From the NCBI RefSeq assembly GCF_000189295.2, contig NC_016803.1, positions 1,020,001 to 1,052,000 on the forward strand: 32,000 bases of DNA, written 5' to 3'. Of this stretch, positions 14,557 through 31,960 are shown one piece after another. Position 1 is the stretch's first letter. Every line of letters begins with the position of its first letter. The position numbers and the translations under genes were made by a program. Under the pieces are notes generated by a model that made no database searches, was not told the origin of the DNA, and saw only the letters and a list, made by a program, of their open reading frames with translations. The stretch is from Pseudodesulfovibrio mercurii (GTDB lineage: Bacteria; Desulfobacterota; Desulfovibrionia; Desulfovibrionales; Desulfovibrionaceae).

Positions 14557-17373
14557 ATGCCGAGCCAGAAGTTTATCGATGCCGTTTCAGATTCATTTCC
14601 CAAGGATCAGGTCTATCTGGACGAGGTGATCGTCCACGCCTTGTCCTTGGACGCAAGCCCCTTCGAGCCCCGCGCCAAGATGCTCGTGGATGTGCGCAGC
14701 GAAGAGGAGTTGCAGGATCTGTTGTCCCTGGCGCGTGAGCACGGTGCGGGTTTGACCTTCAGGGGCGCCTGTTCGGGCATCAACGGGCAGACCGTGGGCG
14801 AGGACGTCATGGTCCGGTTCCGCGGGCCTGCCTGGACCGGGATTAGGGTCCTCGACAACGGTGATTCCATATGGGCCCAGAACATGGTTCCGGGGCAGGC
14901 CCTTAACGGAGCCCTGGTCCCGTTTGGCCGCATCATCGGCCCCGATCCCGGGTCCATCTCGGTGGCCACCCTGGGGGGCATGGCCGCCAACAACTCCACG
15001 GGCATGTGTTGTACCATAGAGCAAAGCATCTTCCACACTATGAGGTCCATGCGCGTCCTCCTGGCGGACGGGACCATACTGGACACGTCCGACGAGCATT
15101 CCCGCACGGCGTTCCGCAAGGCCCACGAAGAGCTCCTGAGCGGTCTTGCCGATATCCGGGCGCGCATCCTTGCCGATGACGAACTCAAAGGGAAGATCAA
15201 GCGCAAGTACTCCATCCGCAATACCTCAGGCTACAGCATGAATGCCTTCACTGAGTTCGAGGACCCCATGGATATCCTCGTGCATCTGATGATCGGTTCC
15301 GAGGGAACCCTCGGATGCATCCTCGACGTCTGCCTGAAGACCGTCGTGCTGGAGCCCTGCCGGGCCACGTCCTTCATGCTGTTCCCGTCATTGGAAAACG
15401 CGATCCAGGCCATTTCCGTGCTCAGTCGGGAAAAGGGCCTCGCCAGGGCCGCCGAACTCATGGACCGGGTGACCCTCAAGGCCGTCGAGTCCTTTCCTTC
15501 CACCTCGGATATCGTCCACACCCTGGACGACAAGGCCTGCGCCGTGCTTCTGGAGACCCAGGCCAGGGATGAAGCCACCTTAAAACAGCGTACCGATACC
15601 ATTCTGGAGCTGCTGAAGGATATTCCCTGTCTAACCGAGCACGAGTTCGTCACGGATCCAAAGGACTACGCCCGTCTGTGGGATATGCGGCGAAACACCT
15701 ATCCCGCCTTTGCCGGGTTTGGCGGCCCCTCCGAGTTCACTGTCACCGAGGACTGGTGCGTCCCGCCCGAAAGGCTGGGAGAAGCTGCCGAAACCTTGCA
15801 GAACCTGCTGGAAAAGCATGGTTTTCAGGGCGGGATCATGGGGCATGCCTTTCACGGAAACATGCACTTCATTCTGTCCCTTCCTCTGGCGGAGCAGGCC
15901 GCTGTGGACAATTTGAAGGGACTCACCGAAGACATCGTGGACGTAATGATCGAACATTTCGAGGGTTCCCTCAAGGCGGAGCACGGAACCGGCCGCTCCA
16001 TCGCCCCCTATGTCGCCCGCGAGTGGGGACCGGAAATCTATGGCATGATGCAGAAATTGAAGCGGTTGCTGGATCCTCAGGGCCTTTTCAACCCGGGCGT
16101 TCTCCTTAACGATGACCCGGACTGCAACTTTACCGGCCTGAAGCAGCCTTGGGGGCTGCACGAGTTCGTCGACAACTGCAACGGCTGTGGTTTCTGCGAT
16201 TCGGTCTGTCCCACGAGGGAGATCGGTTTTACTCCGCGCCAGCGCATCTACGTCAAGCGTACCATCGAAAGGCTGCGGAAGCAGGGCGACACCAAGCGGG
16301 CCGAGCATTGGGAGGAGATGTTTCGCCAATACGGTCTGGACATCTGCGCCACGGACGGACTTTGCCAGTTGCGCTGTCCCCTGGCCGTGGACACCGCTTC
16401 CTACATGCGGCATTTGCGCCATGAAAACCTGAGCGATTTCGCCAAAGGCACGGCCCATCGGATCGGCCGGAATTTTTCGAAGGCGGCCGGACTGGCCTCT
16501 ATGGCCCTGACTGTGGGGCGTGGCTCCCAGGAGATCATCGGCCACGGCGGCGTCGCCCTCGTGGATCGTCTGGCCCGCAAGGCCGTGGGCATGTGCGTAC
16601 CCGACCTACCCGCCATGAAGCTGAGGGGCGGTTCATCCGTTCCTTCTGCAAAGGCCAACGCATCCAGGCAGAAGGTCGTGTACTTTCCGTCCTGCGCCGT
16701 GCGTACCATGGGGTATGACAAGGACGGCGGCCCGGGCCAGGTACCGCTCATGGATACAACGGTAACACTTCTGTACCGTGCAGGATATGAGGTGATTTTC
16801 CCGGAGGGGATGAAAAATCTATGCTGCGGCAAGGCCTACGAAACCAAGGGCATGTCCGAGGAGGCCGACCGCAAGTCCGACGAACTCGGCGAATCCCTGC
16901 TCAAGGCCACGGAAAACGGCCGCTGGCCAGTACTCTGCGACACCAGCCCGTGTCTGGCCCGCATGAAAAAGCATCTGGACAAGCGGCTGGCCCTGTTCGA
17001 GCCTATCGAGTTCGCCAAAAAGTTCCTGGTGGACAGGCTAGATTTCGTTCAGCTGTCCAAAACCGTGGCCGTACACCCCACGTGCTCCACCCGGACCATG
17101 GGGCTGACCGACAGCATGGTGGATGTGGCCTCCCTGTGCGCCGAGCATGTGGTATTGCCGGAAGGCATCAACTGCTGCGGTTTTGCCGGGGACAAGGGGT
17201 TCACCCATCCTGAGGTGAACGCTTCGGCCCTGGCCGAGTTGCCCGCCCAGGTGGCGGCCTGCCGGGAAGGGTACAGCACTTCCCGGACCTGCGAATCCGG
17301 ACTGACCCTGCACAGCGGCAAGCCCTACTTCAACCTCCTGTACCTGCTGGAAGAGAGCAGCCGAGGTGCGTAG
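14557..17373 (+). CDS. YdiJ-like fused FAD-linked oxidase / 4Fe-4S / CCG-domain oxidoreductase (D-2-hydroxyacid dehydrogenase type)
   Basis: I prefer ATG 14557 (MPSQKFIDAV), 9 nt after GGAG. The N-terminal FAD_binding_4-like and FAD-oxidase C-terminal regions include KAEHGTGRS. Ferredoxin motifs CNGCGFCDSVCP and CATDGLCQLRCP. Two CCG-type repeats: YFPSCAVRTMG...NLCCGKAY and HPTCSTRTMG...INCCGFAGDKG. Confidence 0.88.
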   Translation: MPSQKFIDAVSDSFPKDQVYLDEVIVHALSLDASPFEPRAKMLVDVRSEEELQDLLSLAREHGAGLTFRGACSGINGQTVGEDVMVRFRGPAWTGIRVLDNGDSIWAQNMVPGQALNGALVPFGRIIGPDPGSISVATLGGMAANNSTGMCCTIEQSIFHTMRSMRVLLADGTILDTSDEHSRTAFRKAHEELLSGLADIRARILADDELKGKIKRKYSIRNTSGYSMNAFTEFEDPMDILVHLMIGSEGTLGCILDVCLKTVVLEPCRATSFMLFPSLENAIQAISVLSREKGLARAAELMDRVTLKAVESFPSTSDIVHTLDDKACAVLLETQARDEATLKQRTDTILELLKDIPCLTEHEFVTDPKDYARLWDMRRNTYPAFAGFGGPSEFTVTEDWCVPPERLGEAAETLQNLLEKHGFQGGIMGHAFHGNMHFILSLPLAEQAAVDNLKGLTEDIVDVMIEHFEGSLKAEHGTGRSIAPYVAREWGPEIYGMMQKLKRLLDPQGLFNPGVLLNDDPDCNFTGLKQPWGLHEFVDNCNGCGFCDSVCPTREIGFTPRQRIYVKRTIERLRKQGDTKRAEHWEEMFRQYGLDICATDGLCQLRCPLAVDTASYMRHLRHENLSDFAKGTAHRIGRNFSKAAGLASMALTVGRGSQEIIGHGGVALVDRLARKAVGMCVPDLPAMKLRGGSSVPSAKANASRQKVVYFPSCAVRTMGYDKDGGPGQVPLMDTTVTLLYRAGYEVIFPEGMKNLCCGKAYETKGMSEEADRKSDELGESLLKATENGRWPVLCDTSPCLARMKKHLDKRLALFEPIEFAKKFLVDRLDFVQLSKTVAVHPTCSTRTMGLTDSMVDVASLCAEHVVLPEGINCCGFAGDKGFTHPEVNASALAELPAQVAACREGYSTSRTCESGLTLHSGKPYFNLLYLLEESSRGA

Positions 17374-17667: not shown

Positions 17668-19200
17668 TTAAGCCGTCTGCGCTATCCCCAGTTTCCTCAT
17701 CTTCGCGCGTAGTGTGCTGGGGTTCAATTTAAGTACTTCGGCAGCGCCGTTTGCTCCTGTAATTTTACCGGATGTCATCGTCAAAACTTTCAGAATATGG
17801 CCTTTGACCGCCGTTTCGAATGACAAGTCAGAGATGTCGCTTTCGGATTCAAACCCATCGAGCTTACGACATATATCCTGAAAGAAATCATTATTTGGAG
17901 TTATGGTAAACGGTTTGTCCGGAGAATTCCCCCAAAGAAGAACCGCGCGCTCAACGGCATTTTGCAACTCACGAATATTACCACGCCAGGAGTAAGCGCA
18001 AAGCTTTTTCATCTCACTGCCGCTTACACGTGGAGGATGGCATATCCCTAAGAATGAGCAGCGTTTTTTTATAAAATATGTAATCAATATAGGAATGTCT
18101 TCTCGCCTTTCCCGAAGAGGGGGAATGTATATCGGAAAAATATTCAAGCGATAAAGCAAGTCCTTGCGAAAACGTCCTTCCTCGCACATTCGTACAATAT
18201 TGCGGTGGGTGGCCGCAATGATTCGTACATCGACAGGAATCTCTGTCGAACCGCCGACACGCTCTATAACGCCTTCTTGCAAGACACGAAGAAGTTTGGC
18301 TTGCGCTAAAATTGGGAATTCACCGAGTTCATCCAGCAAAAGCACTCCATTATTTGCTCGTTCAAACCTCCCCTTTACCGTTTCTGTTGCTCCTGTATAA
18401 CTACCGCGCTCATGACCAAATAATTCACTTTCGATAAGATTTTCCGGCATATTTGCGCAGTTTATCTTAATAAACGGCGCAGACCTTCGCACAGAACCTT
18501 CATATATAGTATTTGCGACGACCTCTTTTCCTGTTCCCGTTTCCCCCAGAATGAGAACAGGGAAAGTTTCTCTACTGACCTTCCAGATTAGTTCATTAAC
18601 GTGTTGCATACCAGGAAGGTCCAGAGGGAGTCTTGAGGCATCCTGCATTTGCCATTGTTTTTGAGATGATGGGATTTTATTTTCGCAAAATTTTGTATAT
18701 GAATCGGCAAATTTAAAAAAATATGATACATGTTTATCGCTATATGCATTATTTTTTTTCGAAACTAGTGCAAGAGTAACCGCAAATTTTTCAAAAATTA
18801 TATTTCTGAAGTACATTAATGAAAAATTTTTATTTTTGATGATAGATTTAGTCGCTTGGCACAAAAGGAATTTATCATCCTGATTCGCTATCCTAACTAT
18901 ACGCTTTGGGCTACTATTCATGACAACTCTACCCTGCTCAATGGAAATCATTTGTGTATAGTGCTCTTCATTTATATCAGGTGCAAATATATTGTATTCA
19001 TGCTCGCCATATAAAGTTGCAGGCAGCGCCAACATTATCATATCAACTGGAAATATGTTTTTAAATAAGAAATAAATCGATTTAACCTTTTCACATATCG
19101 ATGAATTATCTAATAGTATGTCTAGATAACTTTGATATAACGCTTTAAACCTATTGGTGACTTTCCCAAGACTTGAAGGAGGTTCATAGTAAACTCTCAT
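17668..19200 (-). CDS. Sigma-54-dependent transcriptional activator (bacterial enhancer-binding protein) with a GAF-like N-terminal sensor and a C-terminal Fis-type HTH
   Basis: 510 aa. Walker A LILGETGTGKEVVA. ESELFGHERGSYTGA (a GAFTGA variant). Walker B VLLLDELGE. RFRKDLLYRLN. C-terminal AAEVLKLNPSTLRAKMRKLGI. No receiver-domain signature. The N-terminal ~195 aa end in a GAF-like FAVTLALVSKKNNAYSDKHVSYFFKFADSYTKFCEN. Confidence 0.93.
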   Translation of the reverse strand: MRVYYEPPSSLGKVTNRFKALYQSYLDILLDNSSICEKVKSIYFLFKNIFPVDMIMLALPATLYGEHEYNIFAPDINEEHYTQMISIEQGRVVMNSSPKRIVRIANQDDKFLLCQATKSIIKNKNFSLMYFRNIIFEKFAVTLALVSKKNNAYSDKHVSYFFKFADSYTKFCENKIPSSQKQWQMQDASRLPLDLPGMQHVNELIWKVSRETFPVLILGETGTGKEVVANTIYEGSVRRSAPFIKINCANMPENLIESELFGHERGSYTGATETVKGRFERANNGVLLLDELGEFPILAQAKLLRVLQEGVIERVGGSTEIPVDVRIIAATHRNIVRMCEEGRFRKDLLYRLNIFPIYIPPLRERREDIPILITYFIKKRCSFLGICHPPRVSGSEMKKLCAYSWRGNIRELQNAVERAVLLWGNSPDKPFTITPNNDFFQDICRKLDGFESESDISDLSFETAVKGHILKVLTMTSGKITGANGAAEVLKLNPSTLRAKMRKLGIAQTA

Positions 19201-20011: not shown

Positions 20012-21967
20012 ATGAAACGACCGAAGAGAGTGTTGCTTGTTGGTATTGACGGAGCAGTACCCGGGCTTGTTGAAAAACATATTGCGGAGGGGATTTGCCC
20101 CAATTTTAAAAAGATTTTCGAAGGTGGCGTGAAGAGTTTGAATAGCCTTTGCCCCATGCCTACCATCACGCCGCCCAACTGGACGACGATCTCCACTGGC
20201 GCCTGGCCCGTTACGCACCAGATTACTGACTATTGGAGGCACATTCCCGGAACATCGCCCAATGCCGCCAACACCGAGATGAACTTCAGCGGCGAACGCA
20301 TCAAGGCTGAAACCATTTTCGAGGCGGCAGAGCGCGCCGGGAAGAAATCCATCGTCGTCAACTATCCTACCAGCTACGGCATTCATAAACGCCTGAAAAA
20401 TTCAATTGTTGTCGGCGGTTCTGGCCTGAGCGTGGGAACCATTCAAGATAACGAAACGTCGAAAAATCTTGGCGCCCCGTATGCGGGCGGACAAATTTTC
20501 TGCGACGACCTCATCGTCGGTTCTGCCTACCACCCGGGTGGTATCGTCAGCGATTTTTCACCGGCCAAAGATTGGGAAAACGTTCACGAGCTGGGTGACG
20601 ATCCGATGGAAATCGAGTTCGACCTGCCTTTCGAAAAAAGCCCCTTCAAGCCGCAAAAGCATACTTGGTATTGGCTGATCAGGGACGTCGAAGGCGACGG
20701 CTATGACACGGTCACCCTTTCTCCGTCGCGGAACTTTGATGATGCCTTCTTCACCCTCAAGCTCGGCGAGTGGAGTGACAGGGTTTTTGCCAACATCCGG
20801 CTTGAGGATGGAAGCGTCAAGGAAGTCGCCTTCCTTGGAAAAATTCTGAAATTGAATGACGATGGCACCGACTTTGATTTTTACCTTACGCAAATGCTGA
20901 ACACCGATGGCGACCTTTGGTGCTTCCCCAATAAAGCCGCAGCTTCGCTTCGCGACATCGAAGCCGTGCCTACGACAAAGGCTGGCTTCCTGCTGAGGAT
21001 GATGGGCTGGTACGATGACGAGATGTTCTCCGAACTTATTGAAATGCACAACAAGTGGCTCGGTGAAGCCCTCGTTTCGTTGATGGATAACAACGAATGG
21101 GATTTGTGCTTCTTCCATACCCACCCGACGGATTCGGTCTATCACTACATGATGACGGAGCTTGATCCGGATACGTGCAGCTCCAAGGAAGCGCACGAAC
21201 ATGCATGGGAGTTCCATCGTCGTTTGTACAGATCCACCGATGCCATGCTTGGCAAACTGATTGATTACGTGGGGGAAGACACGGCGATCATCCTTGTCTC
21301 CGACCATGGTTCAAAGGCGGACGGCGCTCCGTTTTCTCCTGTCAATGCCTTGATGGACGCTGGTCTTCTTGTGGCCGATGACACCAAGGAGCCCAACGAA
21401 GCAATCAAGCTTGCCATGAAGAATCTGAGCAAGGAAATGGCCGAAGCCATGCGCAAGAGCGCGGCGGAACCTGTCATTGAAAAGTGCAAAGCATTCCCCC
21501 AGAGGGCCTGCTATGTGTACGTCAACCTCAAGGGACGCGACCCGAACGGTATTGTTGAACCCGAAGACTACCACAAGGTCCAACGGGAAATCATTGACGC
21601 GCTTTACACCTATGTCGATCCTAAGACGGGGATTCGACCTGTCGCGTTGGCGCTCAGCAAGGAGGATGCGCTGGTCATCGGCATGGGTGGCGAACAGTGC
21701 GGTGATGTCGTCTACAGCCTCTATCCCGAGTTCGGTATGCAGCACGGCGCATTCCTCGCCACCGCCAAGTGGGGTATTGGCGATCTTCATACCATGGGTG
21801 TCTTCTACGGCCCCGGTTTCAAAAAGGGGTTCGAGATGGAGCGAGTGACACAACTTGCCGACATCGTGCCCACCATTTGTTATATGATGGGCCTGCCGTA
21901 TCCCAAGACGTGTGAAGGAGCTGTTCTTTACCAGGCTCTCGAAGAGCCCGATTCCTACACCTGCTGA
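20012..21967 (+). CDS. Cytoplasmic alkaline-phosphatase-superfamily hydrolase (type I phosphodiesterase/nucleotide pyrophosphatase, Thr-nucleophile class) with a large insertion
   Basis: 651 aa, no signal peptide. VLLVGIDGAVPG (metal Asp). CPMPTITPPNWTTISTGAWP (PSxTxPN-type nucleophile motif). HPTDSVYH (DxxxH). AIILVSDHGS. GMQHGAF. C-terminal DIVPTICYMMGLPYP. Confidence 0.82.
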   Translation: MKRPKRVLLVGIDGAVPGLVEKHIAEGICPNFKKIFEGGVKSLNSLCPMPTITPPNWTTISTGAWPVTHQITDYWRHIPGTSPNAANTEMNFSGERIKAETIFEAAERAGKKSIVVNYPTSYGIHKRLKNSIVVGGSGLSVGTIQDNETSKNLGAPYAGGQIFCDDLIVGSAYHPGGIVSDFSPAKDWENVHELGDDPMEIEFDLPFEKSPFKPQKHTWYWLIRDVEGDGYDTVTLSPSRNFDDAFFTLKLGEWSDRVFANIRLEDGSVKEVAFLGKILKLNDDGTDFDFYLTQMLNTDGDLWCFPNKAAASLRDIEAVPTTKAGFLLRMMGWYDDEMFSELIEMHNKWLGEALVSLMDNNEWDLCFFHTHPTDSVYHYMMTELDPDTCSSKEAHEHAWEFHRRLYRSTDAMLGKLIDYVGEDTAIILVSDHGSKADGAPFSPVNALMDAGLLVADDTKEPNEAIKLAMKNLSKEMAEAMRKSAAEPVIEKCKAFPQRACYVYVNLKGRDPNGIVEPEDYHKVQREIIDALYTYVDPKTGIRPVALALSKEDALVIGMGGEQCGDVVYSLYPEFGMQHGAFLATAKWGIGDLHTMGVFYGPGFKKGFEMERVTQLADIVPTICYMMGLPYPKTCEGAVLYQALEEPDSYTC

Positions 21968-22045: not shown

Positions 22046-22999
22046 ATGATCCGAAGAAAATTCTGTTTGATCACAATTTCGATTTTTGCCCTGCTCATTT
22101 CTTCATTTGGTATCGCACAGGCCGGATGGCCTGAGCGCCCAGTCAAATTTATTTTGGGGTCGCAGCCGGGGTCATCCATTGATTCAATCGGCAGAATCCT
22201 CGCAAAGCTTTTATCCGAAAAGTTTGGCCAACCTTTCGTTGCAATGAATATTACCGGAGGTGCTCTTGGAGCATTTCCCATGACAATGAAAAACAGCAAA
22301 AACGATGGATATGTCATCGGCATGGGCGCCGATATGAACTTTTCCTATACAGGATTAGAAAAAACAGCAGATTTTAACTTTGATGATTTTGATTACCTGT
22401 GCAGTATATTTAAAGGTGATTGCAGTTTTATCTGTAGCGGAACAAGGGAATGGACAAACATCAAGGACGCATTGGAAGATGTGAAGGCGCAGAGTAGACC
22501 GCTTATTTATCTTTTCCAGACATCTAAAGATCGGCTTATGATGCAGGAGTATGCAAAGCAGGTCGGAGCACAAATCAACTGTGTTCCCAGCCGCGGCCCC
22601 TCGTCCATCATCAGTTCTTTGCTGGGTGGGCACAGCGATGCCGGTTTCAGCGGCGGTGTTCATTATCCGCAGGCCAAAGCCGGAAAAATCAAGACGCTGA
22701 CCATGACTACCAGCAATCGCTCCAGCAACTATCCGGATGTGCCCACCGCGAGCGAACTGTTCGATCCTAGCTACGTTATGGACGCGTTACGCATCATCGT
22801 TGCCCCCAAAGGCTTTCCTGAGGAGGCCAGAACGGAATGCTTGAAGGCCATTTCTGAAGTCATCACAACCGATGAATTTAAAGCATTCGTCAATAACATG
22901 CATTTCGTGATCGATTATCATGAAGGCGAGGACTTGCAGAGGATATTGGACAGGCAGGTTATTGAAAACAAAAAAATGCTTGGTGACGCAGCGAAATAG
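22046..22999 (+). CDS. tctC: Tripartite tricarboxylate transporter (TTT) periplasmic substrate-binding protein, TctC/Bug family
   Basis: 317 aa. Signal peptide MIRRKFCLITISIFALLISSFGIAQA. WPERPVKFILGSQPGSSIDSIGRILAKLLSEKFGQPFVAMNITGGALG...NDGYVIG matches the TctC N-terminal signature. Confidence 0.87.
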   Translation: MIRRKFCLITISIFALLISSFGIAQAGWPERPVKFILGSQPGSSIDSIGRILAKLLSEKFGQPFVAMNITGGALGAFPMTMKNSKNDGYVIGMGADMNFSYTGLEKTADFNFDDFDYLCSIFKGDCSFICSGTREWTNIKDALEDVKAQSRPLIYLFQTSKDRLMMQEYAKQVGAQINCVPSRGPSSIISSLLGGHSDAGFSGGVHYPQAKAGKIKTLTMTTSNRSSNYPDVPTASELFDPSYVMDALRIIVAPKGFPEEARTECLKAISEVITTDEFKAFVNNMHFVIDYHEGEDLQRILDRQVIENKKMLGDAAK

Positions 23000-23067
23000 C
23001 ATCTGATCATGGGGCATTCTATGAATGCCCCATGTATGATGATTCACCGAAATACGAGGAGAGTATT

Positions 23068-23517
23068 GTGTATCGAGCAAATGTCATATCATATATTTTT
23101 TGTATAATATTCAGCTTGGTATTTTTATTGTGCTTAATACAGAGACAGTGCCCGGTATGGCCTGGATTTGGAATACCTGCAACGTACTTTCCGACATTAT
23201 TGTGTTCCGTAATATTAATATGTTCAACTGTGGCTCTTTGTAAAACAATTTTCGATAAGTACAAGTTGAAGGTTGTCGATAGTATAAAAATCGATAAGTC
23301 CCTGTTTTGGGGGCTGCTGAAGTACACTATTGCGATTACTGCCTGCATGCCTTTGATCTGTTACTTCGGATTCATCATAGGCGGCTTCATATCCATGGTA
23401 ATTTTCCAATACTTGATTGGCAGTCGGAAAATAGTCCAGATCGTATGCATTTCAATTATAACAGTATTAGTTCAGTATGCGGCCTTTTGGTATGGACTAA
23501 AAATTATACTCCCATAA
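23068..23517 (+). CDS. tctB: TTT small membrane subunit, TctB family
   Basis: Four predicted TM helices, at the expected position between tctC and tctA. I prefer GTG 23068 (RBS AGGAGAG 23057-63) to the ORF-track ATG 23032, which sits inside the hairpin at 23009-23033. Confidence 0.65.
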   Translation: MYRANVISYIFCIIFSLVFLLCLIQRQCPVWPGFGIPATYFPTLLCSVILICSTVALCKTIFDKYKLKVVDSIKIDKSLFWGLLKYTIAITACMPLICYFGFIIGGFISMVIFQYLIGSRKIVQIVCISIITVLVQYAAFWYGLKIILP

Positions 23518-23527
23518 GGACACAATA

Positions 23528-25033
23528 ATGGACGCAAGTATCTTAAATGGCATCTTTGATGCCTTTAACATCGTAAATATCAGCTATGTGTTTGTCGGCG
23601 TTGCCCTGGGGGTAATCGTCGGCGGTATTCCCGGTCTGTCAGGACCGATCGCGATCGCCATGGTCATCCCGATCACCTACTTCATGCCTGCCGTCGGAGC
23701 CATCGGCTTTTTGGTCGGCATCAACAAGGGCGGTTGTTTTGGAGGGTCCATCACGGCCATCCTGCTCAATACGCCTGGAGCACCAGAGGCAACAGCAACA
23801 ACATTCGATGGGTACCCACTGGCCCAATCCGGGAAAGCCGGTAAGGCGCTCAAAGTTTCTCTGCTTTCATCGGTGATTGGCGATCTGTTCTCCACATGCT
23901 TGGTCATTGCCATTGCCAGCCCTATCGCCTCGATCGCCTTAAAAATGGGGCCTGCTGAAATCGCGGCCATCCTGATACTCGCATTGACCATGATCGCGCT
24001 CCTGGAGAGCGAATCTTTCCTCAAAGGGATCATCGCATCCTGCTTTGGTCTGTTCTTCAGCACGGTCGGCATGGAACCTGTTGCCTCGCAAGCCCGATTC
24101 AGTTTCGGAATTTACCAGTTGGAATCCGGACTTTCTATCGGCGCCATGGCAATCGGAATGCTCGCCGCAGCCGAAATCGTCCGGCAGGCAATAGAGCTCA
24201 ACAAGGAGCAGGGCGTTAACCTTTCCTGCCTGAAAAAAGAAGACAAAAAGAATAACAACCTCAGCGTAAAAGAACTGATTTCGTTGATTCCGACCTGGCT
24301 TCGCTCCTCGCTTGTCGGCTCATTCATTGGCACCTGCCCTGGGCTGGGCTCAACAGTGGCCTGTTTCATGAGCTACGGTATCGCCAAAAAAATGGGTAAA
24401 CCCGGCGAAAAATACGGGACCGGAGAAATCAAGGGCGTAGCCGCGCCTGAAGCCGCGAACAATGCGGTTGTCGGTTCGTCACTCATCCCGCTTTTTACCT
24501 TGGGCATACCGGGGAGTGTTGCCGCATCTCTCCTTGTCGGAGCCTTCGTTATTCATGGAATCACACCTGGTCCTCTGATGTTCGAAGAACATGGCCGTGA
24601 AGTCTATTCGATTTATGGCTGCATGATTGTTGGTAATATTGCGGTTCTCATCCTTGGATATCTTGGAATCAAGATTTTTGTGAAGGTTCTTGAAGTACCC
24701 AAACAGATTCTTTACCCAATCATTCTTTTTACATGCGTTGTCGGCACGTACATTATGGAAAGTGATCCTTTTTATGCCTATGTCATGGTGTTCTTCATGA
24801 TAATCGGGTTCTTAATGAAGATTACTGAATTCCCATTCGTCTCCTTTGTCATTGGTTTTGTGCTGGGAGGCTCTCTGGAGATATCTTTACAGCAGACTCT
24901 TATCATGTCGAGCAATCACATATCTGTTCTTTTTACCAGACCTATATCCGGCTCAATAATGGCAACAACCATGATTGCCATCCTATACTCTGGATATAAG
25001 TACTTTAGGCAGATCAGGATTACCCACAACTAA
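23528..25033 (+). CDS. tctA: TTT large permease subunit, TctA family
   Basis: 501 aa and highly hydrophobic. GVIVGGIPGLSGPIAIAMVIPITY, GGSITAILLNTPGAPEA and FIGTCPGLGSTVACFMSY are typical TctA motifs. Confidence 0.9.
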   Translation: MDASILNGIFDAFNIVNISYVFVGVALGVIVGGIPGLSGPIAIAMVIPITYFMPAVGAIGFLVGINKGGCFGGSITAILLNTPGAPEATATTFDGYPLAQSGKAGKALKVSLLSSVIGDLFSTCLVIAIASPIASIALKMGPAEIAAILILALTMIALLESESFLKGIIASCFGLFFSTVGMEPVASQARFSFGIYQLESGLSIGAMAIGMLAAAEIVRQAIELNKEQGVNLSCLKKEDKKNNNLSVKELISLIPTWLRSSLVGSFIGTCPGLGSTVACFMSYGIAKKMGKPGEKYGTGEIKGVAAPEAANNAVVGSSLIPLFTLGIPGSVAASLLVGAFVIHGITPGPLMFEEHGREVYSIYGCMIVGNIAVLILGYLGIKIFVKVLEVPKQILYPIILFTCVVGTYIMESDPFYAYVMVFFMIIGFLMKITEFPFVSFVIGFVLGGSLEISLQQTLIMSSNHISVLFTRPISGSIMATTMIAILYSGYKYFRQIRITHN

Positions 25034-25047
25034 AGGTTCAAAAGGTT

Positions 25048-26340
25048 ATGAGCAATAAGAATATTAATATCCCCCTGCTTAACAGGCCACTGGTGATTCT
25101 CGGCCTGTTGTGCATAATGTACTGCTTTAGCTTCTTCCACCGGGCATGCATTGCTGTGCTGTCTGTCGATATCATGAATGATTTTGCGATGACGACAGCG
25201 AATATTGGATTAATAGGTTCCGCAACGATGCTCGGCTATGCTTTAAGCCAGGTTCCCACGGGAATATTTACAGATCGTTTTGGAGCCAGAAAAACCTTGT
25301 TTGTTTACCAGATACTTGCTGGCATTAGCGCTATTTGCTTTGCGTATTCCACGGACTGGAAGTTCGCTGTTGCCTCAAGATTTGTGCTGGGGTTGACGAT
25401 AGCCGTAAATGTCCCTGCGTTGAAACACCTTGCACTTTGGTTGCCTGCAGCATGGTATAGCAAGGCTTCAAGCATCCTTTTAACCTTCGCTACAGTCGGA
25501 ACATTTCTCGCCTCGACCCCTCTTGCTTTTGCTTCCAGCGTCTGGGGATGGAAGTTCTGCCTTGTCGCTGTCGGTGTGGCAACCATTGCCCTCGCTTTGA
25601 CCGCATTATTTGGCCTCAAGGACAGGCCGGAGAATCAGATCCTCGCATCACACGAGCCAGAACGAAAGATCAGTCTATCGGTTATCTTTTCCAAAATAGT
25701 CCGCGTCCGCAATTTCTGGCTGTTGTTTATTTGGTTTTTGATCATGGTCGGTAATTTGTATGTCCTTTTCACCATGTGGTGGGGAACCTATCTGATGCAG
25801 GGGGTAGGGTTGGACAAGAATGAGACCGGATTATGTCTGTCCATAATGGCTATTTGTTCTGCTATCGCAATGCCTCTTTTCGCAGTACTTTCCGATAATA
25901 TTCTTCATTCAAGAAAAAAGATTCTTGTTATCGGGTCTGTGGTCGCTTCACTCCTCTTATCCGGCCTGTGTTTTGGTTTCACCGGACACTCAGTACCGGC
26001 ATTGGCTTTTATTAGTGCTTGTTTGAATATTGCATTTGTCGCACCTGCTCCAATGGTCTTTACAATGGCTAAGGAGTCATTGCCGGAGGAAGTGATAGGA
26101 ACTGCATTCGGAATTCTCAATTTTGGTGCCCCTATATACGCATCAATAATTCAATGGATATTTGGTCTTGTTGTTAACAGCGGAATGGAATCCGGTAATA
26201 CAATTTTGGAATCCTATTCATCAGCTTTTATTATGATACTTGCTTTTACGATGATTGGTTTTGTTGCAACATTTTTTATGAAAGATACTTTTACTAGTGA
26301 AGAATGCTATGCGGACCTTGCCACAGAAAAAAGCCGATGA
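25048..26340 (+). CDS. MFS transporter (anion/organo-anion permease type; subfamily not resolved)
   Basis: 430 aa, ~12 TM. MFS signature GIFTDRFGARKTL between TM2 and TM3. The N-terminal FFHRACIAVLSVDIM is COG2271-like. It starts 14 nt after tctA. Confidence 0.88.
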   Translation: MSNKNINIPLLNRPLVILGLLCIMYCFSFFHRACIAVLSVDIMNDFAMTTANIGLIGSATMLGYALSQVPTGIFTDRFGARKTLFVYQILAGISAICFAYSTDWKFAVASRFVLGLTIAVNVPALKHLALWLPAAWYSKASSILLTFATVGTFLASTPLAFASSVWGWKFCLVAVGVATIALALTALFGLKDRPENQILASHEPERKISLSVIFSKIVRVRNFWLLFIWFLIMVGNLYVLFTMWWGTYLMQGVGLDKNETGLCLSIMAICSAIAMPLFAVLSDNILHSRKKILVIGSVVASLLLSGLCFGFTGHSVPALAFISACLNIAFVAPAPMVFTMAKESLPEEVIGTAFGILNFGAPIYASIIQWIFGLVVNSGMESGNTILESYSSAFIMILAFTMIGFVATFFMKDTFTSEECYADLATEKSR

Positions 26341-26581
26341 ACTTGTTTTGGAATATGTTCGAGTGCTGGCTAATGCAAAAGGATTTGGACTAAGTTTTTT
26401 AGAACCGTATGTGATTTTGTCCAAAATACAAATTACTGAAATTGGTAAAACTACTTTTGAATATGCATGGCAGAAAACCCCGCTATTTGTGCTTGAACGC
26501 AATCTCGCAGGGGGGCGCGATGTATGGACTGTAAAAACGACTAATAACATCGTTATCGATGAGTTTTGCGTAACAATCTAA
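26309..26581 (+). CDS. Small hypothetical protein (~90 aa) with no recognisable motif
   Basis: The ORF overlaps the MFS 3' end by 32 nt (44 nt from the GTG at 26297). It is on the operon strand and ends 16 nt before the next gene. No similarity recognised. Confidence 0.4.
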   Translation: MRTLPQKKADELVLEYVRVLANAKGFGLSFLEPYVILSKIQITEIGKTTFEYAWQKTPLFVLERNLAGGRDVWTVKTTNNIVIDEFCVTI

Positions 26582-26597: not shown

Positions 26598-27179
26598 ATG
26601 GCAACGGGAAAAACAGCTGTCCTTGTGTTTACATCTCTCAACGAAGGGATTTTCTCGGACCAAAAAACTTCTGGAATGATGAAGTTGTTTAATGAAGGCA
26701 CCGCCGCCCCGCTGACGGTAAAAAAGGATTTTCGTATCGAAACCTTATCTGGTGCCGAGTCGGGTGAAAGCGTTGTCGATGCGGCACACAAAGGCGGTTA
26801 CGTCATGGAAGAACTGTCCGACGCAACCGAATTTTATGTAGCCGATTGCGTTACGAAGGAATCTTTCGCCGAGTTGATGAAAGAGGCAACGGCGCTGGAT
26901 CCGAAAAAAACGCTTATTACGATTGTCAGTCCTTCCGCGGTGTTGTTTTCCGGGCTGGGTGTAAAAAAGAATGTGAAATTGTCGACTCCCATTCCTGCCT
27001 CAAGCATCGCCCCCACCTTGGCCCTGATCGCAGATCTGCCGCTTCCCGCCCAGGTTGCCTATCCGCCGGCATATGCAGTCCTTGATGGTCTGGATTTCAA
27101 GGCACGGGAGTTCGCCGAGATGAAACGCACGATGGATGGGCTGATGAAAAACATTGAGGAAGCGAACAGCCAAAATTGA
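26598..27179 (+). CDS. Mini AP-superfamily-like protein, paralog 1 (predicted non-catalytic)
   Basis: 193 aa, RBS GGATAGGAG. It aligns collinearly with paralog 2. It has by-eye similarity to the N-terminal strand, the DHG strand and the C-terminal 34 aa of the 651-aa hydrolase, but the catalytic residues are replaced (see findings). Confidence 0.7.
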   Translation: MATGKTAVLVFTSLNEGIFSDQKTSGMMKLFNEGTAAPLTVKKDFRIETLSGAESGESVVDAAHKGGYVMEELSDATEFYVADCVTKESFAELMKEATALDPKKTLITIVSPSAVLFSGLGVKKNVKLSTPIPASSIAPTLALIADLPLPAQVAYPPAYAVLDGLDFKAREFAEMKRTMDGLMKNIEEANSQN

Positions 27180-27257
27180 TGGCACTGCCATCCAGACAAT
27201 TGAAAGACTGACATAGGCGTATATTAACTATCAGTTTATAAGCTAGAAGGTGTAATT

Positions 27258-27860
27258 ATGATTACGGGTAAGACTGCAGTTTTGATCTTTACTACGTTAT
27301 CCGATGAGGCTCTGAAGAACAGTGACAACTCCGATATCGGCAAGCTTTTTCGCAAGGGTTCCGCTGTACCATTGAAGGCTGAAAACGATTTGCGGACAGA
27401 AGCTCTGGCCGGTTCAACGATGGGCGAAAGCATTGTCGAAACCGCCAAGGCGGCTGGCTATAAAACTGATGAACTCGGATCCGATACGGACTTGTACGTC
27501 ACCGAAGCGGAAACTGAGGAACAGTTGGCGTCGATTTTGTCTGTTGCTTATACTGTTGGCGTCAGCAACACGCTGATTATCCTCGCCAGTCCGACTTTGG
27601 CCATTTTCTATGGCCTTGGCATTCAACGAAAGGTTCAATTGAAAGAGCCGCTCAATGCAACTTGCATCGCTCCGACGATTTCCTGGATTGCCGATATTCC
27701 CTACCCGGCAGATGTTGAGGCCGCCCCTGCGTACCCCGTACTGAAGGGTTTGAACTTCAAGGCCGGCGAAATGGCAAAACTCAAGAAGTCTCTTGATGCG
27801 CTGACCTTGAACATCGAAAGAGGCAACCTCAAGCCTTGGGACAAACACGATTGCGCGTAA
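27258..27860 (+). CDS. Mini AP-superfamily-like protein, paralog 2 (predicted non-catalytic)
   Basis: 200 aa, RBS AGAAGGTG. Roughly 35-40% identity to paralog 1 over the full length without gaps (by eye). FYGLG...IAPTISWIADIPYP aligns gaplessly with FYGPG...IVPTICYMMGLPYP of the hydrolase. Confidence 0.7.
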   Translation: MITGKTAVLIFTTLSDEALKNSDNSDIGKLFRKGSAVPLKAENDLRTEALAGSTMGESIVETAKAAGYKTDELGSDTDLYVTEAETEEQLASILSVAYTVGVSNTLIILASPTLAIFYGLGIQRKVQLKEPLNATCIAPTISWIADIPYPADVEAAPAYPVLKGLNFKAGEMAKLKKSLDALTLNIERGNLKPWDKHDCA

Positions 27861-27963: not shown

Positions 27964-28245
27964 ATGCTCTTTTTCTTAAACAAAACTGGTAAACTAAATG
28001 TAGACCTTATTGGTATGATTTCTGGTGGAGAAGAATCGAGTCTTCTCCTTGTCGGAGACGCGGTGACCCTGGGCACTCCGACGGGACAGGAACTCTTGTC
28101 CGATTTCGAATTCGAAGACGTATTCGTACATCGCGATGCCGTCGAGGCAAGGAACATTTCCCTGTCTGAACGGTGCGTGCCCGTTACGTATTCTGACATG
28201 GTCGACATCTTGATGAACCATGATGGTCAGATCGTTTCTTTGTAG
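27964..28245 (+). CDS. DsrH/TusB-like small protein
   Basis: 93 aa, RBS AAGGAG. LLLVGDAVTL, then VFVHRDAVEARNI and VTYSDMVDILMNHDGQIVSL, match the DsrH/TusB pattern (LLL.DGV...DL.ARG...idy..fV.L......v.sW). Confidence 0.65.
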   Translation: MLFFLNKTGKLNVDLIGMISGGEESSLLLVGDAVTLGTPTGQELLSDFEFEDVFVHRDAVEARNISLSERCVPVTYSDMVDILMNHDGQIVSL

Positions 28246-28265: not shown

Positions 28266-28664
28266 ATGCCCAAGACACTTACTTTACTGCTGATGTCCGG
28301 TTCCGCCGAAAACGAGGACGCTGAATTCGCCACAAAACTGAGTTCGGCAGCTCTTGAAAAAGGACATCGTGTTCAAATCTATCTTTTCGGCAATGCGGTG
28401 AATCTTTCCAAAAAGGAATTCCCCATAGAAGGCGATCTTCATATCGCTCCGATGCTGATTGAGCATATCGAACCAACAAAAAGCTTTACAAGGATTGCAG
28501 AGTTATGCCGCGAAGGCGCCGACATTTCAACATGCCATACTAATGAACACGCCCGGGGCATCGAGTCACGAGAGTATATCGATGGAGTAAAATGGGGAGA
28601 TGTTGGAGGGACATTTACAAAATATCTTCTCGGATCCGATGTATTACTTTCAATCTCGCACTAG
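28266..28664 (+). CDS. DsrE/TusD-like protein with the conserved active-site-position cysteine
   Basis: 132 aa. LTLLLMSGSAENEDAEFATKLSSAALEKGHRVQIYLFGNAV, then ADISTCHTNEHARGI (the C-x6-RG position equivalent to the DsrE/TusD persulfide-carrying Cys), then DVLLSI at the C-terminus. Confidence 0.75.
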   Translation: MPKTLTLLLMSGSAENEDAEFATKLSSAALEKGHRVQIYLFGNAVNLSKKEFPIEGDLHIAPMLIEHIEPTKSFTRIAELCREGADISTCHTNEHARGIESREYIDGVKWGDVGGTFTKYLLGSDVLLSISH

Positions 28665-28721
28665 CTCAAACGGCTAGTCCTTTTGGGGCATTGTAACTTA
28701 TGCATTCCAATAGAGGTTAAT

Positions 28722-29054
28722 ATGATTAATTCACTCGTGTTGTTTGTCAACAAACCACTTGGGGTAGAGTTGTCCGCCCTTGGTGTCAGGACGGCCTGGG
28801 CATGTCATGAAAACTCTTTTGACGTAAAGTTGATTTTTCTTGGCGACGGGGTGTGGTGTGCGACTGACAAGCGCGGCTACCATGCTGAAATGATAAAAAG
28901 ACTCATCGAAAATGATGGCGAAGTTTTTTGTGTGGAAGAAAGTCTGAAAGAACAGGGTATCGATCCGGACAGCCTCATCGAAGGTATTGATGTTGTGCCC
29001 CGTGAGGAGATCTGTGATTTCTGTGAAGACGTTGAAAGTGTTGTTTCATTCTAA
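28722..29054 (+). CDS. DsrF/TusC-like protein
   Basis: 110 aa from ATG 28722 (RBS AGAGG). LVLFVNKPLG...LGVRTAWACHENSFDVKLIFLGDGVWC, then EVFCVEESLKEQGI and DVESVVSF, follow the DsrF/TusC pattern. Confidence 0.7.
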   Translation: MINSLVLFVNKPLGVELSALGVRTAWACHENSFDVKLIFLGDGVWCATDKRGYHAEMIKRLIENDGEVFCVEESLKEQGIDPDSLIEGIDVVPREEICDFCEDVESVVSF

Positions 29055-29070: not shown

Positions 29071-29508
29071 ATGCCAGAAGTTACTTTTGCAAGAAACGTT
29101 GCTACCGGAAAAGATACGTACAAGCTTGGTTCTTGTTTCTCCGAAGAATTTGTTTTTGACTTGAACTCTGTTTCTGTTGAAGAACGAAATCAGGATCACA
29201 CCGGAGCCAGGTTGTTGTGCGCTGCAGCACTCGCGTGCTTCTGCAACACTTTTTACAACGAGCTTGTCAACTCTGGTGCTGAAGTCAAATTTATCCACGC
29301 TTCAGCAAACACTGAAAAAGAACAAGACCTGACTATGAGAACGCATTATTGCGCTATGAGTATTGAATTAGAAGCTGGAATGAACGAAAAATATATGCAT
29401 ATCTTTGATGAAGTTGCGGAGCATATGCTCAATGGATCACTGCTTACATATAGCCTTGAAGAAGCAATGAGCATTGATTACAACTTCAAGTTAACTTTTG
29501 TTGATTAA
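29071..29508 (+). CDS. OsmC/Ohr-superfamily-like protein
   Basis: 145 aa, RBS AAGGA. GARLLCAAALACFCNTFYNEL resembles the OsmC helix motif (P.ELL.AAL..C). The canonical second Cys (CP motif near the C-terminus) appears replaced (EHMLNGSLL). Last gene of the array. Confidence 0.6.
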   Translation: MPEVTFARNVATGKDTYKLGSCFSEEFVFDLNSVSVEERNQDHTGARLLCAAALACFCNTFYNELVNSGAEVKFIHASANTEKEQDLTMRTHYCAMSIELEAGMNEKYMHIFDEVAEHMLNGSLLTYSLEEAMSIDYNFKLTFVD

Positions 29509-30352: not shown

Positions 30353-31960
30353 ATGGCAGTCATAACGCCCCGCGATCTGGAAAACGGGAAGACCCTCGAA
30401 GCGGACATCTGCATCTGCGGATCGGGACCGGCGGGCATCAGCCTGGCCCACGCCCTGGAGGGCTCCGGCCGCTCCGTCTGCATCGTCGAAAGCGGCATCG
30501 ACAAACCCAACGAGGAAATACAGCATCTCAACGACCTGGAGAACGTGGGCTTCCCCCTGCGTCCGCACTTCGTCAACCGGCTGCGGATGATCGGCGGCAC
30601 ATCGAACCTGTGGCCCGGCAGGTGCGTCCGCCTGGACCCCATCGACTTCGAGCGGCGGCCGTGGGTCCCCTTCAGCGGCTGGCCGCTCGCCTACGCCGAA
30701 TACACGGCCTACATGCGCAGGGCCGCACCCCTGCTGCGCCTGCCCGAGCCGTGCCCCGAATCCCCGCTGGCGGACGGCGGGAGTCCGTCCCACATACCCG
30801 GTCCCGAGGCCTGGGACGCGGCGGGCCTGGACGCGACCGAAGGGCTGTGGGCCAAGGCCCCGGCCCGGTTCTGGCCGATCTTCCGGAAACGGCTCACCCG
30901 GTCCTCGGGCGTGACGCTCATCGCCGACCTGACCCTCACAGGGCTCGACTTCAGCGACGACGGCGGCCACGTGACGTCCCTGGAGACCCGCGACCGCTCC
31001 GGCAGGCGGTTCACCGTCCGCGCCGGGCAGTACATCCTGGCCATGGGCGGGCTGGAAAACACCCGCACCCTGCTGCTCGCCGCGGAGCGAAACGCGCAGG
31101 CCCGGATACCCCGCGCGCCCCTGGGCAAGTATTACATGGACCACCCCAAGACCACCTGCGGCCGGATAGAACTCGCCGAGGGGGTGGACTGGCGCCGGCT
31201 GGTCGGCCGCCACGCCGTGCCCGGCGGAAGACGCCAGCTGCTCTTCCGGCTGTCCCCCGAGACGCAGCGCCGCGAAGGGCTGCTCAATGCCTACGTCAAT
31301 CTGGAGCCCAGCTATTCGGGCGGTACCGAGGCCAACTACAACCGGACCATCGAAATCCTCAAGCGGCTGCTCCGCAAGGGACACGTGGGCAACCGCCTGG
31401 ACCTCTCGGAGATGGAGGGGATGCGCGACCTCATCTACCAGCTCACGCCCGACGAGATAGTGCCCTACCCGGTCTATCGCCTGCTCCAGTTCGTGAAGCA
31501 GCATCTGAAAAAGCCGCCCCGGCATCTGGTCATCGTCAACCACTGCGAACAGATACCCAACGAAAACAGCAAGATATCGCTCTCCGACCAACGCGACCGG
31601 TTCGACAACCCGCGCATCCGGCTGCACTGGGAGGTGGTCCCGGCGGAGATCGAGACCCTGGCCCGCCTGCAAACACATCTCGCCGACTTCCTGGAGCAAA
31701 ACGGGATCGGCAAGCTGGTGACCGACGTCTCCGAACTGTCCGGCTCCCACTACACGGACGCGTCCCACCACATGGGCGGGACGCGCATGAGCGCGGACCG
31801 GGAGACCGGCGTGGTGGACGAACATCTCGCGGTGCACGGCGTGGACAACCTGCACGTGCTCGGCAGCTCCGTCTTCCCGACCGGAGGCGCCGCGAACCCG
31901 ACCTGGTCCATCGTCGCCCTGGCCCTGCGCCTGGCGGACCGGCTGACGGACAGCACCTAG
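30353..31960 (+). CDS. GMC-family FAD-dependent oxidoreductase
   Basis: 535 aa. N-terminal Rossmann motif DICICGSGPAGISLAHAL...CIVESG. C-terminal GMC signature HHMGGTRMS...VVDEHLAVHGVDNLHVLGSSVFPTGGAANPTWSIVALALRLADRL. Confidence 0.88.
   Translation: MAVITPRDLENGKTLEADICICGSGPAGISLAHALEGSGRSVCIVESGIDKPNEEIQHLNDLENVGFPLRPHFVNRLRMIGGTSNLWPGRCVRLDPIDFERRPWVPFSGWPLAYAEYTAYMRRAAPLLRLPEPCPESPLADGGSPSHIPGPEAWDAAGLDATEGLWAKAPARFWPIFRKRLTRSSGVTLIADLTLTGLDFSDDGGHVTSLETRDRSGRRFTVRAGQYILAMGGLENTRTLLLAAERNAQARIPRAPLGKYYMDHPKTTCGRIELAEGVDWRRLVGRHAVPGGRRQLLFRLSPETQRREGLLNAYVNLEPSYSGGTEANYNRTIEILKRLLRKGHVGNRLDLSEMEGMRDLIYQLTPDEIVPYPVYRLLQFVKQHLKKPPRHLVIVNHCEQIPNENSKISLSDQRDRFDNPRIRLHWEVVPAEIETLARLQTHLADFLEQNGIGKLVTDVSELSGSHYTDASHHMGGTRMSADRETGVVDEHLAVHGVDNLHVLGSSVFPTGGAANPTWSIVALALRLADRLTDST

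Follow-up and report, generated by a model that had tools for sequence, protein, structure and literature searches.

We analyzed a 32,000-nucleotide stretch of the Pseudodesulfovibrio mercurii ND132 genome (contig NC_016803.1, positions 1,020,001 to 1,052,000; called the window below) and asked what is encoded by two tandem genes within it, whose products are related proteins of 193 and 200 amino acids, the latter being DND132_0965. We refer to proteins of this kind as minis. Upstream of them lies the gene for a 651-amino-acid enzyme of the alkaline phosphatase (AP) superfamily. The evidence supports the view that the minis are degenerate, miniaturized versions of an AP/NPP-type enzyme and have lost the AP catalytic residues. 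The 200-amino-acid protein ends in a highly conserved tail, PWDKHDCA, which in other lineages is part of the enzyme itself. We consider it probable that this protein is a trans-acting subunit whose Cys-bearing arm couples the AP/NPP-type enzyme to a thiol relay.

The minis derive from an AP-type enzyme and have lost its active site

A first-pass annotation of the window, made from the letters alone, had described the two open reading frames (ORFs) as tandem paralogs that align without gaps. Both ORFs are present where it had placed them, and the alignment is gapless over 190 residues, of which 83 are identical (83/190, 44%; E 4e-58). The enzyme gene, which was said to lie seven genes upstream, does so for the 200-amino-acid ORF, but it lies six genes upstream of the 193-amino-acid ORF. 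The enzyme and the minis are encoded in one transcriptional direction.

Three segments of the minis had been matched by eye to the 651-amino-acid enzyme. The C-terminal match of 34 residues is real. BLASTP stretches it to 51 residues at 31% identity for the 200-amino-acid copy (E 8e-8), and the C-terminus of the 193-amino-acid copy also matches (E 1e-3). When a profile of 29 mini family members was compared with a profile of nine enzymes in hhalign, the match covered 89 columns with a probability of 99% and E 2.4e-18. By these sequence comparisons, residues 113 to 200 of the 200-amino-acid protein are homologous to the C-terminus of the enzyme family, and the homology of these 89 columns bears out the proposal that the minis were derived from the enzyme. 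The other two segments (VLLVGIDG with AVLIFTTL and AIILVSDHG with LIILASPTL) did not hold up by sequence: hhalign found nothing significant between the N-terminal 115 residues of the minis and the enzyme family, and gave a weak collinear match there (ESIVETAKAAG with ETIFEAAERAG, E 0.077).

We therefore turn to the predicted structure for the N-terminal part. The AlphaFold2 model of the 200-amino-acid protein, built on a 29-sequence alignment, has a mean predicted local distance difference test score (pLDDT) of 84.7 and a predicted template modeling (TM) score of 0.75. Five strands are predicted, together with a long helix spanning residues 163 to 189 and a tail of low confidence. In a Foldseek search of the PDB, the top 50 matches all belong to the AP superfamily, among them arylsulfatase A, YejM/PbgA, LtaS, NPP3, and other sulfatases, with TM-scores on the query of 0.5 to 0.6 and E values down to 5.6e-4. 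Thus, the AP fold proposed at first sight is confirmed at the level of the model. The two segments that were not recovered by sequence coincide with predicted strands beta1 (6-12) and beta4 (105-110), so that their placement against the enzyme is plausible, although it rests on fold rather than on sequence. As modeled, the N-terminal ~115 residues of the minis keep the AP core topology and are poorly conserved.

The partner enzymes retain a full set of catalytic residues. Across 69 of them, D13, T53, H369, H371, D374, H378, D410, D431, H432, H578, and Cys623 are 97-100% conserved, with T53 lying in the motif PT[IV]TPP[NS]W. We compared these positions with 68 non-identical minis. The metal-binding Asp of beta1, found in 67/69 enzymes, gives way to T13/S13 in the two paralogs, and the 68 minis vary between S, D, A, G, and E there (the alignment at this position follows the placement of the strand, as sequence similarity is not significant). 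The nucleophile motif with T53 is missing, and mini positions 38-44 are variable. The Asp-His pair of the enzyme (...VSDHG) is replaced by SPT/SPS in the paralogs and is variable across the mini family. Finally, the stretch carrying enzyme H578 is deleted, with beta4 and beta5 joined in a hairpin (105-118). The loss of metal ligands and nucleophile that had been read from two sequences is therefore a property of the family.

Neither paralog matched a Pfam or NCBIfam model at E<=0.01, including PF01663 (Phosphodiest) and PF00884 (Sulfatase), and a PDB sequence search gave no match for either, so the expectation of a new family was right as far as these family models go. The mini homologs form 28 clusters at 90% identity. 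When 1.84 billion cluster representatives were searched with a family profile, we obtained 78 relatives (clusters at 50% identity), which include more distant minis of ~190 amino acids and also full-length enzymes of 400-780 amino acids, whose C-termini match mini profile positions 113-201 and finish in PWDKHDCA.

Both paralogs are under purifying selection. Measured against the orthologs in a related locus (L087), the ratio of nonsynonymous to synonymous substitution rates (dN/dS) is 0.07 for the 200-amino-acid copy and 0.19 for the 193-amino-acid copy. The 193-amino-acid ortholog there has equal length and an equal stop position and is 78% identical. This second species keeps the tandem arrangement of the minis, and it shares with ND132 the gene order u90 (a ~90-amino-acid protein), 193-amino-acid mini, 200-amino-acid mini, and DsrH.

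The most conserved element is a C-terminal module ending in a Cys tail

Apart from M1, A2, K5, and K33, which are the only residues conserved at 90% or more in the first 116 positions, every residue that reaches this level among the minis sits in the C-terminal module (residues 113-200). This module consists of the last AP-core strand and helix, the long amphipathic helix 163-189, and the terminal tail. Its conserved residues are F117, G119, T140, D146, Y159, K163, N166, K168, E171, K174, L175, R188, and R191, followed by PWDKHDCA and the terminal carboxylate, which are near-invariant in the alignment. Since the pLDDT of the tail is low in the isolated mini, we expect that the tail is probably flexible there.

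The 193-amino-acid paralog has the module and its helix and stops seven residues short, without the Cys. The first-pass annotation described both paralogs without mentioning the tail, and so it missed the most conserved element of the family and the main difference between the two proteins. Its description of the minis as non-catalytic stands in the AP sense; beyond that it does not, as the overlooked Cys may be chemically active. We define the mini family here as proteins of ~176-207 amino acids that carry the F117...Y159...K163-N166-K168-E171 module, end in PWDKHDCA, and are encoded downstream of a tail-less enzyme of 630-670 amino acids. The 200-amino-acid protein has every one of these features, and the 193-amino-acid protein has part of them (the module, without the last seven residues that include the Cys).

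In frame after the TGA of the 193-amino-acid ORF, positions 27177-27203 read WHCHPDN*, which superficially resembles a decayed PWDKHDCA. We considered a decayed tail or stop-codon read-through and rejected both: the L087 ortholog reads RQALPTN* at that point, and therefore the resemblance is due to chance.

The module is found either split from the enzyme or fused to it

Enzymes that adjoin minis (in the window and in loci L001 and L005) stop at ...LYQALEDPDxYT, where relatives run on into helix and tail; the enzyme of the window ends ...LYQALEEPDSYTC, just short of this point. Other enzymes (P0071, P0068, and similar proteins) continue past it into the helix and PWDKHDCA. We modeled one tail-fused enzyme and obtained a pLDDT of 94.8, with the C-terminal helix confidently packed and the last ten residues at pLDDT 69. 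The nearest structural matches of this model are PafA, SPAP, and the NPPs (E 3e-15), which are Thr-nucleophile two-metal hydrolases. In databases, the enzyme family carries generic names only, such as 'alkaline phosphatase family protein'. Its C-termini are of several types: no extension, a helix followed by PWDKH[DE]CA, PWDKKDDAP, LTHTY, or VERPPMC, and short RPACK-like tails.

The tail-less enzyme of the window has a Cys of its own near the end, as its last residues (21953-21967) read ...DSYTC. Close relatives also have a Cys there (P0112, P0113, and P0114, ending ANTCS, AFTCPPEL, and AYTCK), and other relatives end in AYTVK or AYTA.

To follow the tail across genomes, we retrieved loci with the pattern [PS]W[DER]KHDCA from GTDB contigs, with one genome per species. 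There were 137 confirmed loci from several phyla. Most belong to Desulfovibrionaceae, namely Desulfovibrio (including D. desulfuricans and D. falkowii), Bilophila wadsworthia, Mailhella, Maridesulfovibrio, and a Lawsonia-like metagenome-assembled genome (MAG), and the remainder come from Desulfobacula, Desulfarculia, Syntrophaceae, and Chloroflexota. The system is common in sulfide-producing bacteria of gut and sediment.

Synteny was counted in 80 of these loci by family-seeded searches, and all counts out of 80 below refer to this set. They contain 74 minis (~150-235 amino acids) and seven tail-fused enzymes. Among the 66 minis with enough upstream sequence, a tail-less enzyme is encoded immediately upstream of 46 and in the same operon for ~13 more, where transporter or DsrHEF/OsmC genes lie between, as in the window. 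Four or five of the 66 are orphans. None of the tail-fused enzymes (0/7) has a mini within 3 kb. This complementarity of split and fused forms is the strongest indication we have of joint action by mini and enzyme, and from it we infer that the two may form a functional complex. The earlier idea of a subunit of the enzyme is in keeping with the conserved adjacency and with the fusion in other lineages, and we consider it probable.

The operons encode thiol and redox proteins as possible partners

An OsmC-like gene is present in 60/80 loci, and its Cys56, at the peroxidatic position, is conserved in all 42 sequences compared (42/42). The OsmC-like protein of the window is tied by jackhmmer to PF02566-annotated neighbors; a PDB sequence search with it gave no match. 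A DsrH-DsrE-DsrF-like triplet occurs in 14/80 loci, the window included, with Cys90 of the DsrE-like protein conserved in 13/13. Elsewhere, we found an Lpd-like pyridine-nucleotide disulfide oxidoreductase (29/80) and a GcvH-type lipoyl carrier (27/80). The DsrHEF-like and Lpd/GcvH-like sets have zero overlap among the 80 loci, and each is found with the OsmC-like gene. The two sets seem to be alternatives for one step. A sigma-54 activator is encoded in 49/80 loci.

We also looked at seven enzyme neighborhoods that were picked by enzyme similarity alone, independent of the tail. In three of them the enzymes have short Cys-ended tails (RPACCKK, VERPPMC, and RPVGCR), and they adjoin nitroreductase-family genes (two cases) or glutaredoxins with a ferredoxin-thioredoxin-reductase subunit (one case). 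Two have enzymes without a C-terminal Cys (tail-less and LTHTY), and these have no thiol or redox neighbor. In the last two, the enzyme with the KKDDAP tail is the first of a tandem pair, and genes for OsmC and a complete SdsA1-type alkyl sulfatase come after the second member. In these seven neighborhoods Cys-type tails go with reductase-type neighbors, and we count them in favor of the Cys-arm reading.

The two nitroreductase-family flavoprotein genes lie directly downstream of the enzyme, one after the ...RPACCKK enzyme of a Desulfovibrionaceae MAG (L090, 10061-10633) and one after the ...VERPPMC enzyme of a Chloroflexota member (L091, 10477-11046). Such flavoproteins may be a third type of redox partner.

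A proposed mechanism and its alternatives

In the mechanism that we propose, the 200-amino-acid mini would be a pseudo-protomer that docks on the 651-amino-acid enzyme through the remnant of the AP fold and the helix. It would present Cys199 on a flexible arm either to the two-metal/Thr53 site of the enzyme or to the invariant Cys623, and this Cys would serve as covalent acceptor or redox partner for a group transferred by the enzyme. In ND132, Cys199 could then be discharged or re-reduced by Cys56 of the OsmC-like protein together with a DsrHEF-like relay (Cys90 of DsrE). For most Desulfovibrio and Bilophila we envisage an Lpd-like flavoprotein with a GcvH-type lipoyl carrier in place of the DsrHEF-like relay. 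More tentatively, the 193-amino-acid paralog, which has the helix and not the Cys tail, might be a second, arm-less partner. This last idea comes by analogy with tandem enzymes found elsewhere. Locus L093 (8001-12120) encodes two full-length enzymes, of which the first ends in QPWDKKDDAP, without a Cys, and the second in QPWDKHECA; the contig of P0161 likewise has tandem full-length enzymes, the first ending in QPWDKKDDAP. The KKDDAP/KHECA pair may thus be analogous to the pair of tail-less and tailed minis in ND132.

Several observations weigh against a Cys arm serving a thiol relay. The main set of loci was fetched with the tail motif, and because of this its frequencies are biased; the unbiased sample consists of the seven neighborhoods. 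The adjacency and fusion of the genes show that mini and enzyme are functionally linked but do not say how. Some orphan minis (L036, L043, and L074) are far from any enzyme. Non-Cys tails (LTHTY and KKDDAP) occur on the same helix in the enzyme family, and therefore the appendage need not be redox-active in general. OsmC, Lpd, and GcvH could by themselves be a peroxide-detoxifying unit. Finally, the nearest structural relatives of the enzyme, PafA and NPP, are plain hydrolases that need no thiol.

One chemistry for the set of enzyme, Cys arm, and thiol relay would be that of a hitherto unknown 'reductive sulfatase', which we regard as unlikely. The sulfuryl group of a sulfate ester would pass to the tail Cys as S-sulfocysteine, and the OsmC-like protein, with lipoyl-GcvH/Lpd or DsrHEF, would release sulfite. 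Candidate substrates are choline-O-sulfate in the loci with BCCT or CutC, alkyl sulfates in those with alkyl sulfatase, and an anionic ester in ND132.

Among the alternatives, an autoinhibitory or regulatory tail comes first, though we think it unlikely. Here, His-Asp-Cys-Ala and its carboxylate would block the two-metal site in the manner of a pseudo-substrate or 'cysteine switch', and the OsmC-linked redox state would set the grip. H, D, C, and a terminal carboxylate are good Zn ligands or phosphate mimics, the KKDDAP and LTHTY tails likewise end in potential ligands, and the 'regulatory subunit' suggested in the first-pass annotation agrees with the conserved adjacency. However, a tail of this kind leaves the co-occurrence of Cys-type tails and reductase-type partners unexplained, and there is no reason why a dedicated Lpd/GcvH or DsrHEF set should be kept merely to regulate.

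We also judged it improbable that the mini is a persulfide carrier whose tail Cys moves sulfane sulfur to or from the DsrHEF-like complex, as in DsrC/TusE, while the AP enzyme frees sulfur from a thio-substrate. The DsrH-E-F-like genes stand immediately downstream of the minis in the window, with the invariant Cys90 in DsrE; the penultimate Cys on a flexible C-terminal arm is reminiscent of DsrC/TusE, and the distribution is nearly confined to sulfate or sulfite reducers. These points lose force, as DsrHEF-like genes occur in 14/80 loci only, with Lpd and GcvH elsewhere, and the minis have no homology to DsrC/TusE. In addition, we know of no AP-type reaction that gives sulfane sulfur.

The orphan minis raise the possibility of an independent function, in which minis serve OsmC, DsrHEF, or Lpd-GcvH, for example as a substrate or adaptor in peroxide or thiol stress, and are merely co-regulated with the AP enzyme. 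At L074 the mini is accompanied by OsmC-Lpd-GcvH but not by an enzyme, and the minis of L036 and L043 are distant from any enzyme. But seven loci and many metagenomic proteins have the module joined covalently to the enzyme, and the MAG with L074 encodes enzymes elsewhere; we find this explanation quite improbable. The orphan minis of L036 (9520-10173) and L043 (8037-8639) have intact tails and follow a gene whose product ends ...LGVVHMHDCLRAGIE and may, at a guess, be KpsF/GutQ-like. The MAG from which L036 derives also carries the tail-fused enzyme of L019.

It is very improbable, in our estimate, that the mini is a metallochaperone or assembly factor that binds metal through its HDC tail and loads the binuclear site, or that stabilizes or folds the enzyme. 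HDC is a plausible set of metal ligands, and an enzyme-like fold that has been retained could template the interaction, but the permanent fusion of a chaperone tail to the enzyme in other lineages would be unusual and the thiol partners would be left unexplained. That both ORFs are functionless remnants of duplicated enzyme genes, as their short length and missing catalytic residues might suggest, is effectively refuted by dN/dS values of 0.07 and 0.19, the invariance of the tail over 137 loci, and the conservation of length and synteny.

Comparison with known systems

The closest solved relatives of the partner enzyme, and hence of the ancestor of the minis, are PafA, SPAP, and NPP (PDB 5tj3, 3q3q, and 2gsn). 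Like the partner enzyme, they have a Thr nucleophile in a PTxTxPN-like motif and two metal sites. The C-terminus of PafA aligns locally with the mini (Foldseek rank 42; 31% identity over 52 columns). Compared with these enzymes, the minis have lost all catalytic residues and ~450 residues of inserts; unlike the ND132 system, PafA, SPAP, and NPP have neither the C-terminal helix with a Cys tail nor thiol partners. The periplasmic domain of YejM/PbgA (PDB 6vat, 5i5d, and 6xlp) ranks with the best structural matches that the mini gave (E 5.6e-4) and resembles it in having an AP-superfamily fold, an incomplete catalytic apparatus, and a non-hydrolytic role. However, YejM/PbgA is ~340 amino acids long, membrane-anchored, and periplasmic, acts in lipopolysaccharide/cardiolipin regulation, and has no Cys tail and no adjacent catalytic paralog. 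Sequence similarity between the two is undetectable.

For the tail, the nearest mechanistic precedent, by analogy, may be the tail Cys of adenosine 5'-phosphosulfate/3'-phosphoadenosine 5'-phosphosulfate reductase (CysH). In this enzyme, a catalytic Cys in a conserved, flexible C-terminal tail attacks the group being transferred and forms covalent S-sulfocysteine, which is resolved by a thiol partner (PMC1175818; bioRxiv 10.64898/2026.09.04.749436). CysH has an unrelated, PP-loop ATPase-like fold, and its tail acts in cis and has the motif ECGLH, so that the likeness is one of analogy and not of homology. Three other systems offer partial parallels. The C-terminal arm of DsrC/TusE, which is flexible, bears a conserved Cys as its penultimate residue. 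With DsrEFH/TusBCD, DsrC/TusE resembles the mini in that such an arm is found near DsrE/F/H-like proteins with an active-site Cys; the mini, however, has an AP fold and no match to PF04358, and the penultimate Cys is the only feature in common. In lipoyl-dependent Ohr/OsmC peroxidases and in Lpd-DlaT-AhpD-AhpC, electrons pass from NADH to Lpd, a lipoyl carrier, a small thiol oxidoreductase, and then the target Cys. The 27-29 loci in which OsmC, Lpd, and GcvH-like genes stand together are similar, but the presumed terminal acceptor is the tail of the AP-type enzyme or mini rather than a peroxide, and ND132 has DsrHEF-like genes instead of Lpd/GcvH. Finally, SoxYZ uses a C-terminal Cys 'swinging arm' to bring a sulfur-oxyanion adduct to the binuclear-metal hydrolase SoxB. 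SoxYZ and SoxB differ from the mini and its enzyme in having unrelated folds, the motif GGCGG, and a periplasmic, oxidative role.

In the literature searched we found no paper on the minis or their system, and there was no family model in Pfam or NCBIfam. AP-fold domains without catalytic function (YejM/PbgA) and swinging arms that bear a Cys are known singly; the combination proposed here, a detachable enzyme remnant with dedicated thiol partners, is not known. The AP superfamily is a textbook model for catalytic promiscuity and enzyme evolution. If our reading is true, a half-sized pseudo-enzyme that carries a detachable Cys-ended arm and is interchangeable with a fused form would be a new architecture in this superfamily and a clean natural case of gene fission that leaves a pseudo-protomer. 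There is a minority chance that the system marks reductive chemistry of a new type, for which the AP superfamily would offer no precedent. Were it a reductive sulfatase, its sulfite would enter the dissimilatory reduction pathway with no ATP spent on activating sulfate, and organosulfates would become accessible to Bilophila and other bacteria that respire sulfite only.

Neighboring genes hint at the substrate

Transporters near the operon differ between lineages: TctABC and a major facilitator superfamily (MFS) transporter in the window and Mailhella, TRAP in Desulfarculia, and BCCT in 36/80 loci. In ND132, TctABC and MFS suggest an organic anion as substrate. The BCCT transporter gene is the immediate neighbor in D. 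falkowii and in four Maridesulfovibrio genomes. In D. desulfuricans, the operon abuts a choline-utilization cluster with a MerR regulator, a bacterial microcompartment shell protein, an aldehyde dehydrogenase, and a glycyl-radical enzyme, and the latter scores 1135 bits against D. alaskensis CutC vs ~265 bits against isethionate sulfite-lyase. The operon of D. desulfuricans SFAD67 directly abuts this choline trimethylamine-lyase (CutC) microcompartment cluster and its MerR regulator; the CutC and BCCT adjacencies were seen at L061 (1-5314) and L072 (5756-7405). Pyruvate formate-lyase-like glycyl-radical enzymes occur within 10 kb in 14 loci. For the largest subfamily, the BCCT and CutC neighbors suggest a choline ester. 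Alkyl-sulfatase-like genes were found in five loci, plus the two tandem-enzyme clusters; taken with BCCT and CutC, they hint at choline or sulfate esters. As the system is common in gut Desulfovibrionaceae (Bilophila wadsworthia, Desulfovibrio desulfuricans, Mailhella) and in marine and sediment sulfate reducers, and in many genomes stands beside a BCCT transporter and CutC microcompartment cluster, its substrate may bear on microbial H2S and trimethylamine production. We discarded one apparent clue, the 'choline sulfate medium' of a transposon paper on strain G20, which means choline plus sulfate.

In the two tandem-enzyme clusters (L093 and the P0161 contig), the enzymes are followed by OsmC, TetR, DUF169, and the SdsA1-type alkyl sulfatase, with acyl-CoA ligase, SCP2, and SDR upstream, which looks like an alkyl-sulfate degradation cluster. 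The neighborhood of the enzyme with the LTHTY-type tail (P0194, locus L092) has an NMT1-type ABC transporter, an IF-2B family (MtnA-like) isomerase, a PNP_UDP_1 phosphorylase, and an amidohydrolase. This context suggests a nucleoside or methylthioribose-type substrate for the LTHTY subfamily.

Gene map of the window

The features of the window are collected in Table 1. The TctC, TctB, and TctA genes are also present in L005-L012, and the MFS transporter gene is kept across the ND132 clade. The u90 gene is called as a 90-amino-acid gene in L087 and L088, is found in 10 loci of the ND132/Mailhella clade, and has a dN/dS of 0.12. Its product has no conserved Cys and no family match. One database protein, P0031 (316 amino acids), has a u90-like N-terminus apparently fused to a mini.

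Table 1. Positions, in window coordinates, of the genes and protein segments discussed here.
Feature	Position	Strand	Basis or remark
Sigma-54-dependent transcriptional activator, divergent	17668..19200	-	PF00158 2e-64
651-amino-acid cytoplasmic AP/NPP-type enzyme, complete two-metal/Thr site	20012..21967	+	PF01663 2e-29
TctC, TctB, TctA tripartite tricarboxylate-type transporter genes	22046..25033	+	Pfam
MFS transporter	25048..26340	+	Pfam MFS_1 6e-42
u90, ~90-amino-acid protein without assigned function, directly upstream of the minis	26309..26581	+	Kept in clade
193-amino-acid mini paralog	26598..27179	+	Fold and helix as in the 200-amino-acid copy; without PWDKHDCA tail (ends ...EEANSQN)
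200-amino-acid tail-bearing mini AP-fold protein, DND132_0965	27258..27860	+	ORF, AlphaFold2 model, homologs, dN/dS
C-terminal module of the 200-amino-acid protein, residues 113-200	27594..27857	+	hhalign to enzyme family, conservation
Tail K-P-W-D-K-H-D-C-A-COOH, residues 192-200, invariant penultimate Cys199	27831..27857	+	Alignment
DsrH/TusB-like protein	27964..28245	+	PF04077 6e-6, TIGR03011 3e-8
DsrE/TusD-like protein, invariant Cys90 in TCHTxExxRG motif	28266..28664	+	PF02635
DsrF/TusC-like protein	28683..29054	+	PF02635 3e-9, TIGR03010 1e-5
OsmC-like thiol protein, invariant Cys56	29071..29508	+	Weak NCBIfam OsmC match, jackhmmer

Two further genes flank this region on the forward strand. 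The first (14440-17373) encodes a 977-amino-acid fusion of an FAD-linked oxidase (FAD_binding_4 and FAD-oxidase_C) with 4Fe-4S and CCG domains, and the second (30353-31960) encodes a GMC-family oxidoreductase that is weakly similar to choline dehydrogenase. Both may belong to the same catabolic island as the minis.

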